A stretch of 64,000 nt of DNA from an uncultured Acidobacteriota bacterium. GTDB lineage: Bacteria > Acidobacteriota > Thermoanaerobaculia > Gp7-AA8. The notes beneath the pieces were generated by a model, which worked only from the letters and a program-made list of their open reading frames with translations, ran no database searches and was not told the DNA's origin. Below, piece by piece: positions 41,552-43,048 of this stretch. A program made the position numbers and the translations under genes. Position 1 is the first letter of the stretch, and each line of letters starts with the position of its first letter. The stretch covers positions 192,001 through 256,000 of the forward strand of contig CAVUKB010000004.1 in assembly GCA_963741955.1 (NCBI GenBank). The letters run 5' to 3'.

Positions 41552-43048
41552 ATGAGTGAAGGGATGGACAACACCCGCGGGATCGTCAATGCTCCCGAGT
41601 TTCCGAAGGACCACGACTGGCTGAACGCCGGGCGGCCCCTCACGATGAAGGAGCTGCGCGGGAAGGTGGTCATTCTCGAGTTCTGGACCTTCTGCTGAAT
41701 CAACTGCCACCACAATGTCGCGCAGTTGCGCCGACTTCGAGAGCATTTTCCGGACGAGCTGGTGGTGATCGGCGTCCATTCGGCGAAGTTCCCGTCCGAG
41801 AAGGAGACGGAAAACGTTCGTCAGGCGGTGATGCGCCACGGTATCGAACATCCGGTGATCAACGACCGCGGGTTCCGCATCTGGAACGACTACGGAATTC
41901 ATGCCTGGCCGACGGTGGTGCTGATCGACCCGAACGGCAAGGTGGTCGGGATGAAGCCGGGAGAGATCGACGCCGATGAGTACATCCCGCTGATCGACTC
42001 GATTCTGGAACGGAACGCGGATCGGATCGACCGCTCACCGCTGCCGGTCGGATCGGAGAAGAGCCTCGAGCGCGAACGCCTTCTTTCGTTTCCGTCGAAG
42101 CTTCTCCTGGCGGACGAACGGTTGTTCATCGCGGATACCGGGCACCACCGCATTCTCGAGCTCCGGCTCGGGGAAGGAACCGACGCGGAGATTCTGCGCA
42201 TCTTCGGAAGCGGCGCGGAAGGATTCGACAACGGCCATTACGAGAACGCCTCGTTCCGGGATCCCCACGGGATGGCGCTCGAGGGATCGAGCCTCTATGT
42301 GGCAGACACCGGCAACCACGCGATCCGAGCGGTCGACCTCGAGGGGGGCTACGTCCGCACGGTCGCCGGAACGGGAGAGAAGGGGAGCTGGCGTCTTCAG
42401 GTCGGAAGGGCGCGGGAGGTGGCGCTCCGTTCTCCCTGGGCGCTGCAGGTGACCGATGCGGAGACGCTTCTGGTCGCACTCGCGGGATCGCACCAGATCG
42501 GGCTACTGCTCCACGAGGAGCAGATCGGTCCATTCGCGGGGAGCGGGCAGGAAGCGCTGGTGGACGGTCCGCGCGAGACCGCCGGATTCAATCAGCCCAG
42601 CGACATCGCGTTCGGGATGGATCACGTCTTCGTCGCCGACTCGGAAGCGAGCGCCATCCGCGCGATCGTTCTCGACGAACCGCTGCGCGTGATGACCATG
42701 GTCGGGCAGGGACTGTTCGAGTTCGGGGACGTCGACGGCACGGGCGCCGAAGTCCGGTTACAGCACCCGACCGGGATCGCGCTGGGTGAAGACGGTCAGA
42801 TCTACATCGCCGACAGCTACAACCACAAGATCAAGGTGCTCGACCCTGCCACCGGGAGGACGACGTCTCTGATCGGGAGCGGACGGGCGGGCGATCGCGA
42901 CGGCCCGTTCGACGAGGTCGAGCTCCGCGAGCCGGAAGGAGTGGTCGAGCGGGGCGGAGTGCTCTACATCGCGGACACCAACAACCACGCGATCCGGGTC
43001 GCCGATCTCGCCGCACGCACGGTGAGGACGCTCGAGATTCGAGGCTAG
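41552..43048 (+). CDS. Thioredoxin-like plus NHL-repeat protein (NHLRC2/SOQ1-like), probable selenoprotein (Sec49)
   Basis: RBS and ATG 41552 in frame with the 41726 ORF across TGA 41696-41698 in [24 protein letters not shown] repeats [27 protein letters not shown]. Confidence 0.88.
41717..41735 (+). promoter_or_regulatory. Candidate bacterial SECIS hairpin
   Basis: GTCG-CGC-AGTT-GCG-C-CGAC; loop starts 25 nt after the UGA with G at loop position 2 followed by U. Confidence 0.6.

Follow-up and report, generated by a model that had tools for sequence, protein, structure and literature searches.

A probable selenoprotein gene of the NHLRC2/SOQ1 family, with selenocysteine predicted at the redox-active position of its C-C-I-N-C motif, in an uncultured Acidobacteriota bacterium

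Introduction

Human NHLRC2, the protein mutated in FINCA disease, and SOQ1 of Arabidopsis belong to a family in which an N-terminal thioredoxin (Trx)-like domain with a CC(I/V)NC motif is followed by an NHL-repeat beta-propeller in one chain. Here we describe a gene of this family from an uncultured Acidobacteriota bacterium (GenBank assembly GCA_963741955.1, contig CAVUKB010000004.1, positions 192,001 to 256,000), in which an in-frame TGA falls on the second motif residue (C-U-I-N-C) and is very probably decoded as selenocysteine (Sec). The 64,000 nucleotides analysed are called the window, and coordinates are those of this stretch. The closest stand-alone structure for its Trx-like domain is the C-terminal Trx-like domain of DipZ from Mycobacterium tuberculosis (2hyx), which is fused to a CcdA-like membrane domain and has neither an NHL propeller nor Sec.

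The best relative of solved structure is SOQ1 (7djj), whose lumenal part comprises a Trx-like domain, an NHL propeller and a domain at the C terminus (CTD). The redox pair of SOQ1, C431-C434, forms a disulfide and occupies the second and fifth motif residues, the midpoint potential of its Trx domain is -274 mV, and a Trx-NHL-CTD fragment showed methionine sulfoxide reductase activity (2024 preprint, 10.1101/2024.11.01.621559). NHLRC2 (6gc1) is soluble and has a six-bladed propeller; its CCINC motif, where helix 1 begins, faces the cleft between the Trx-like domain and the propeller, and the protein was inactive in an insulin reduction assay and is without known biochemical activity (PMC6107167). 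The preliminary description of our locus, made from the sequence without database searches, had called the activity of the family unclear; this still applies to NHLRC2 and no longer to SOQ1, for which the 2024 preprint reports both redox and methionine sulfoxide reductase activity. The CTD is poorly conserved in NHLRC2 and essential in SOQ1, homologues without it are the usual architecture in bacteria, and the active site of DipZ reads SCINC (PMC6107167).

Among described selenoproteins, the nearest families in a 2026 review are the Prx-like thiol:disulfide oxidoreductase, the Thiol-disulfide isomerase-like protein and the Redoxin family/Prx-like 3 (PMC13188914). These share with the window protein a Sec that is first in UxxC, a thioredoxin fold of the TlpA/redoxin type and a bacterial selenocysteine insertion sequence (bSECIS) in the coding region, but unlike it none is described with an NHL propeller. 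Their motifs also differ from C-U-I-N-C, with ...ASYUGLC in the GOS Prx-like 3 example and DWUTWC in the Sargasso isomerase-like family.

A reading frame continuing through an in-frame TGA

On the forward strand, a frame that begins with an ATG at 41552-41554 meets an in-frame TGA at 41696-41698 and then stays open to a TAG at 43046-43048. With the TGA read as Sec (U), the product has 498 residues and the motif EFWTF-C-U-I-N-C, in which Sec is U49. The features of the locus are as follows.

41540..41551, + strand: purine-rich run resembling a ribosome binding site (RBS), GAGGGGGGAAGG, directly 5' of the start codon, read from the sequence
41552..43048, + strand: predicted full-length coding sequence of the thioredoxin-like/NHL selenoprotein, 498 codons plus TAG, with one in-frame TGA
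41594..41965, + strand: thioredoxin-like domain (TlpA/DipZ-like, Thioredoxin_8), residues ~15-138; Pfam PF13905 at 37-131, PF00578 at 15-132 and PF08534 at 23-138; DipZ 2hyx
41693..41707, + strand: active-site motif C48-U49-I50-N51-C52 (TGC TGA ATC AAC TGC), aligning with CCINC of SOQ1
41696..41698, + strand: putative selenocysteine codon UGA (U49); TGA in 28 and TGC/TGT in 49 of 80 related loci
41717..41735, + strand: hairpin of the bacterial SECIS type; 5' arm 41717-41723 GUCGCGC, loop 41724-41727 AGUU, 3' arm 41728-41735 GCG-C-CGAC with C41731 bulged
41762..43048, + strand: shortened gene of the public protein set; its 428-aa product begins MVIGVHS and lacks the active site
42083..43042, + strand: NHL-repeat beta-propeller, residues ~178-497; Pfam NHL E 4.7e-30; the propeller-only chains 7djm and 6g7w match 178-497

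The start codon is preceded by 44 nt of sequence separating it from a MutS-domain gene that ends at 41507. A listing of open reading frames (ORFs) divided the gene into two pieces, one of 48 aa (41552-41698) and one of 440 aa (41726-43048). The public protein P0002 is the window's own call, with 100% identity over 86% of the read-through protein; its start at 41762 was calculated from the protein length. Searching a protein database with the read-through product returned thousands of relatives, and among the 120 best matches coverage was 84-91% in 110 and 98-99% in the other 10. We fetched 24 of the database proteins: nine were full-length, all with FWT[FSY]CC[IV]NC, and the remaining 15 were short and started just past the motif, two of them at MNCHHN, from the codon after the TGA, and several at MAQLRRL. 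The preliminary description had extended the frame upstream from 41726, through the TGA at 41696, to an RBS-preceded ATG, had predicted that gene callers would truncate the gene, and had given FWTxCCINC as the family motif. The 498-codon frame is indeed present in the sequence, truncation is seen both in the gene's own 428-aa call and in the 110 shortened matches, and the motif agrees with the nine full-length proteins and with Cys at the site in 49 of the 80 related loci.

The part of the frame upstream of the TGA appears to be coding. When its last 36 codons were compared with those of nine relatives, the protein was conserved amid many synonymous differences (against one relative, L001, 12 codons were identical, 14 synonymous and 10 non-synonymous). 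This pattern is the mark of purifying selection and argues that these codons are translated in frame with the rest of the gene. The UGA thus lies inside an ORF that is conserved on both sides, the 449 codons downstream aligning with SOQ1 and NHLRC2.

Both parts of the NHLRC2/SOQ1 architecture were recognised in the read-through protein. Pfam placed Thioredoxin_8/AhpC-TSA/Redoxin (residues ~15-138) and NHL in the same chain, in that order, and the matches to solved structures covered nearly the whole length (SOQ1 7djj, E 1.8e-111, residues 13-497; NHLRC2 6gc1, E 3.9e-94, residues 11-495), while DipZ 2hyx matched the Trx domain alone (E 7e-22, residues 8-152). The CC(I/V)NC motif of the family is present as C-U-I-N-C, and C431-C434 of SOQ1 correspond to U49-C52, with Cys in SOQ1 and Sec in the window protein at the first of these sites. 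The protein ends right after the propeller and has no CTD with a Cys pair, the SOQ1 alignment ending at residue 512 of the 667-residue chain. It differs from NHLRC2, which has Cys rather than Sec and an additional beta-stranded domain at its C terminus, and from SOQ1, which resides in the thylakoid membrane and possesses a HAD domain at the N terminus, a transmembrane helix and a CTD bearing an essential Cys pair, none of which the window protein has. The extra ~130 residues of the CTD were likewise absent from 27 of the 29 Sec genes and from 21 of the 47 Cys genes examined, and the absence is variation within the family that does not exclude the window protein from it. Database matches of ~570 aa, truncated at the N terminus yet with a CTD, were common; because they are cut at the same point, they are probably Sec forms as well. 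No signal peptide was evident by eye in the N-terminus, and the protein reads as a cytoplasmic-type member of the NHLRC2/SOQ1 family.

TGA and Cys codons alternate at the motif

Among contigs representing one genome per species, we confirmed 564 relatives and compared the DNA of the best 80 at the codon homologous to U49. It was TGA in 28 loci (29 TGA genes with the window, which is not among the 80) and TGC or TGT in 49, a proportion that does not give the family-wide share because these loci are the ones most similar to the query. The remaining three had TAA (L047), a Ser codon (L079) or had lost the site (L002). The preliminary description had proposed a TGA/TGY alternation as a check and had placed the TGA at the first residue of the CxxC; the alternation is present, and the TGA codon corresponds to the second C of CC(I/V)NC, where Cys homologues have TGC or TGT. 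Together with the covarying hairpin described below, found in TGA genes only, this supports its reading of the gene as a 498-aa UxxC selenoprotein. Of the 78 loci whose codon for the second motif position could be read as sense, 77 have Cys or Sec there, L079 being the exception. Where the first C of the pair would stand, 14 of the 49 Cys loci and the Sec locus L080 have G, and this C thus seems, from this comparison, to be dispensable.

A hairpin specific to the TGA genes

Sec insertion in bacteria depends on a bSECIS for which a loop of 3-9 nt, a stem of 4-16 bp, a UGA-to-loop distance of 16-37 nt and a minimum free energy (MFE) of at most -7.5 kcal/mol have been given, the loop having a G among its first two nucleotides and usually G or U next (PMC13188914). 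The window agrees with all of these published values: its AGUU loop lies 25 nt from the UGA on a stem of 7 bp, and the hairpin folds at -9.5 kcal/mol and also forms within the MFE structure of the 81 nt after the TGA. It overlaps the coding sequence for part of V-A-Q-L-R-R. The 81-nt fold as a whole was no better than shuffled sequence; only the short hairpin and its comparison among relatives are informative.

The 54 nt from the TGA onwards align without gaps in the window and the 28 other TGA loci, and columns 28-33 (CAGTTG) are invariant in all 29 genes, synonymous positions included. RNAalifold on the 29 genes gave a single hairpin, pairing columns 22-28 with 33-39 around the AGUU loop at -10.26 kcal/mol, with compensatory double changes at five of the seven pairs. 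The hairpin and its AGUU loop, 25 nt from the TGA, occurred in 29/29 TGA genes. Paired cells made up 93.9% in the consensus register, 79.6% in shuffles and 34-68% in registers slid by 1-3 columns, and the covariation score was 0.395 (0.141 in shuffles), a value reached by none of 500 shuffles. Some compensatory changes alter the protein, as in L018, which has S-Q-L-G in place of P-Q-L-R, which argues that it is the RNA, not the peptide, that is conserved. In contrast, the same region of the 48 aligned Cys genes yielded no consensus hairpin (-0.72 kcal/mol), and their Leu and Gln/Asp codons varied freely. Sec forms encode (A/P/S/V)-Q-L-(R/G) with an invariant CAG UUG, and Cys forms mostly P-D-L-K with free codon choice. 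The Sec-form hairpin (AGUU, CAGUUG) is a case of a SECIS fixing the encoded peptide, as (A/P)-Q-L-R, across phyla.

A covariance model trained on the 28 other TGA loci, with the window left out, was run over both strands of the window with filters off. It gave one significant match, at 41713-41738 (27.6 bits, E 1.6e-5), the next best reaching 14.2 bits (E 0.13). In the 52 non-TGA loci (972 kb) the model matched only L047 (37.1 bits) and L002 (28.8 bits), and it had no match at the homologous site in any of the 48 Cys genes. An Rfam scan of the window had no match at the hairpin.

Weighing the alternatives

On this evidence, 41552-43048 is very probably a single genuine selenoprotein gene of the NHLRC2/SOQ1 family, with Sec at the redox-active position of C-C-I-N-C. 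The reading frame, the TGA/Cys alternation, the conserved covarying hairpin and the family membership are observed; insertion of selenium, the presence of Sec machinery and the nature of the substrate are inferred. Several observations weigh against this assignment. Taken alone, the window hairpin surpasses shuffles only moderately (z -2.18, with 9 of 200 shuffles folding as well), it is off the ungapped consensus register at two of seven pairs and requires the bulged C, and shuffled versions of the 81 nt that follow the TGA folded just as stably (z 0.09). No selA, selB, selD or tRNA-Sec was found within the 64-kb window (ARAGORN reported no tRNA, Rfam no match), and a tRNA scan of the flanks of 29 loci found ordinary tRNAs only and no tRNA-Sec. 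The 80 loci are the closest to the query, so that 28 of 80 is too high an estimate for Sec in the family at large, and the tree used below came from a quick search, has no branch support other than SH-aLRT and is unrooted.

If the TGA were an artefact of sequencing or assembly, or a new nonsense change in a Cys codon, the gene would be an ordinary Cys-type NHLRC2 homologue or a new pseudogene. One base is enough to turn TGC or TGT into TGA, and damage does occur in related loci from metagenome-assembled genomes (MAGs), with TAA and a TAG at a Trp codon in L047, TGA at a Trp codon in L053 and a frameshift in L063. However, 28 of the 80 independent genomes share this TGA, the window has the hairpin that marks the TGA genes and that none of the 48 Cys genes shows, and it sits within an all-Sec clade, which makes this origin very unlikely. 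It is equally hard to credit that the TGA is a true stop, with a product that starts at 41726 or 41762 and consists of the NHL propeller and a crippled thioredoxin domain, the 48-codon upstream ORF being separate or untranslated. This would match the ORF listing and the public gene call, and TGA is the commonest stop in the window, but such a product would be missing both the first strand of the Trx fold and its CxxC, purifying selection acts on the 36 codons 5' of the TGA in the same frame as on the remainder, and the ATG at 41552 has an RBS-like run before it.

Read-through of the UGA without Sec, by near-cognate insertion of Trp or Cys or by genome-wide reassignment of TGA, would also give the full-length protein, although nothing specific speaks for it. 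With 23 of the window's 32 Pfam-supported genes ending in TGA, the code is not reassigned; homologues have a redox Cys at the site rather than Trp or Gly, and a SelB-type hairpin at canonical distance is conserved with covariation, leaving this explanation a negligible probability. We also considered that the gene is a relic from a lineage that once decoded UGA as Sec and whose genome has since lost the Sec machinery, the gene now being silent or terminating and headed either for decay or for a change from Sec to Cys. The family does contain such conversions and decayed copies: L013 and L024/L025 are Cys forms on the Sec side of the tree, L047 and L002 keep the hairpin without a usable TGA context, and no sel gene was seen in the window. 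Set against this, the ORF is unbroken before and after the TGA, the hairpin is intact at 27.6 bits, and a lack of sel genes in 64 kb is uninformative when the genome is much larger; a relic is accordingly improbable. The same 64-kb scope applies to the Pfam search of the window's 38 large ORFs, which found no sel domain. According to the BSepDB paper, two Dehalococcoidia MAGs have 46 and 49 selenoprotein genes, which establishes Sec use in a class that supplies many of the TGA loci.

Distribution and possible single origin of the Sec form

Judging from record titles and NCBI ranks, TGA genes were found in Chloroflexota, Thermomicrobiota, Planctomycetota, Ca. Dormiibacterota and Ca. Rokuibacteriota; among the carriers in Chloroflexota were Caldilineaceae, Anaerolineae, Ardenticatenia, Chloroflexia, many Dehalococcoidia and SAR202. 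We built a tree of 76 proteins with a quick IQ-TREE search, excluding the motif and the 12 hairpin-encoded residues and dropping L063 because of its frameshift. The Sec/Cys state required three changes on this tree and about 23 in shuffles, none of 500 shuffles being as low. One branch with 96% support separated 44 Cys-only rows from 32 rows that held all 29 Sec genes and three Cys genes (L013, L024 and L025), and the window fell in a seven-row all-Sec clade (100% support) with genes of Caldilineaceae, Anaerolineae and Planctomycetota. The tree and the shared hairpin together fit one origin of the Sec form, which would then have spread across phyla with occasional reversion from Sec to Cys. 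As the tree is unrooted, gain and loss of Sec cannot be told apart on it. Within the Sec clade, L013 still encodes P-Q-L-R, but with CAG CTC and without the hairpin, and looks like a recent Sec-to-Cys conversion.

Several loci depart from both types. L047 (1467-1560, a Thermomicrobiales MAG) has TAA at the Sec site and TAG at a conserved Trp codon, so that DWLN reads D*SN, with an intact SECIS hairpin of 37.1 bits. Its two G-to-A changes suggest either a decaying selenoprotein gene or base-damage/assembly errors. In L002 (1973-2081, an Anaerolineaceae MAG; protein P0017) the hairpin is kept (28.8 bits) and the sequence upstream of N-C has no relation to the family; other sequence has taken the place of the UGA-bearing 5' end, through rearrangement, insertion or a chimeric contig. 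L047 and L002 both look like former Sec (TGA) genes, now decayed or rearranged. L053 (6490-6560, an Acidobacteria MAG) is a Cys-type GCINC homologue with TGA at the conserved Trp codon of FWTY (F-TGA-T-Y) and is probably a pseudogene or a sequencing error; its upstream region codes for an N-terminal segment that is hydrophobic, and export of some Cys forms is thus possible. In L063 (10121-10174, a Blastocatellia MAG), a 2-base deletion just past CCINC shifts the frame, which ends after 29 residues. L079, from a Gammaproteobacteria MAG, reads FWTYSSINC, with Ser at both CC positions and the last Cys alone left, and is possibly a redox-inactive or monothiol member.

Proposed mechanism and significance

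We propose that SelB with Sec-tRNA would bind the AGUU hairpin (41717-41735) while the ribosome is at the UGA (41696), leading to insertion of Sec49. Sec49 and Cys52 would make up a U-x-x-C redox centre where helix 1 of the Trx-like domain begins, in the cleft between this domain and the propeller. Sec49 would probably act as the attacking nucleophile, giving a selenenylsulfide with the substrate or with Cys52, and Cys52 would resolve the intermediate. The propeller would bind the protein substrate and provide recognition, and the enzyme would most likely be a thiol/selenol-dependent reductase of oxidised protein side chains, acting on a disulfide or sulfenate, or on methionine sulfoxide by analogy with SOQ1.

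To our knowledge, Sec is used almost only at catalytic redox positions, and its natural occurrence at the second residue of CC(I/V)NC is an independent sign from evolution that the residue works as a redox nucleophile. Such evidence matters for a family in which the human NHLRC2 has no known activity and the methionine sulfoxide reductase activity of SOQ1 was described only recently. The analysis also corrects a systematic annotation error, as this gene and many relatives are stored in truncated form, lacking the N terminus and the active site; functional and selenoproteome surveys that use such entries will miss the Sec forms.

Bacterial selenoproteins with a Trx fold and UxxC are a known kind, and what is new here is a widely distributed Sec form of the NHLRC2/SOQ1 family, without any new principle. 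Table 1 of the 2026 review lists 119 prokaryotic selenoprotein families and has no NHL entry (PMC13188914); the term 'NHL' does not occur in the text of the review. The window protein does not match the motif or domains of the representatives catalogued under Redoxin family/GOS Prx-like 3, and neither CUINC nor CUVNC occurs in the text of the GOS and Sargasso sequence supplements. No NCBIfam selenoprotein model reached its cutoff (WAxxUGC_long scored 23.9 bits against a cutoff of 300), and we found nothing in the open-access literature linking NHL, NHLRC2 or SOQ1 proteins with selenocysteine. The family may already be counted under a generic 'Prx-like' label.

A broader proposal can be put forward tentatively, and as a whole we incline slightly against it. 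The NHLRC2/SOQ1 family would hold a large Sec clade, apparently of single origin, in at least five phyla (those named above), missing from the catalogue of 119 families and systematically truncated in databases, with Sec at the position of SOQ1 C431 and mostly without the CTD. Sec at that position in forms that mostly lack the CTD would make the Trx-like domain a direct catalytic nucleophile, acting on substrate in the Trx/propeller cleft and not as a mere electron relay. If this is true, the Sec forms are natural high-activity versions with which to work out the biochemistry of NHLRC2, the FINCA disease protein.

Gene neighbourhood and other features of the window

For the neighbourhood we compared 2,945 flanking ORFs from 77 sources by all-against-all BLASTP and searched 16 examples with Pfam. 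Neighbours were conserved within lineages only (Dehalococcoidia, Nostocales) and were housekeeping genes, such as those for a release factor, PrmC, UbiE and UbiA. The flanking ORFs included no sel genes, no partner shared across phyla and no neighbour in common with the window. This agrees with the published account of the family as having no conserved operon (PMC6107167).

A crude scan of both strands of the window for in-frame TGAs with coding-like flanks returned three sites, at 41696, 16590 and 50285. We rejected 16590 as a real gene boundary and 50285 as lying off-frame within a large ORF. Elsewhere in the window, 11879-19411 on the + strand encodes PrpD/MmgE, aconitase, isocitrate/isopropylmalate dehydrogenase, an ACP-CitE-like lyase fusion and the citrate lyase alpha subunit (CitF), and is a tricarboxylate-metabolism cluster. 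On the - strand, 48619-52992 is a 1,457-aa ORF, and 30685-36612 is a bacterial alpha-2-macroglobulin gene of 1,975 aa.

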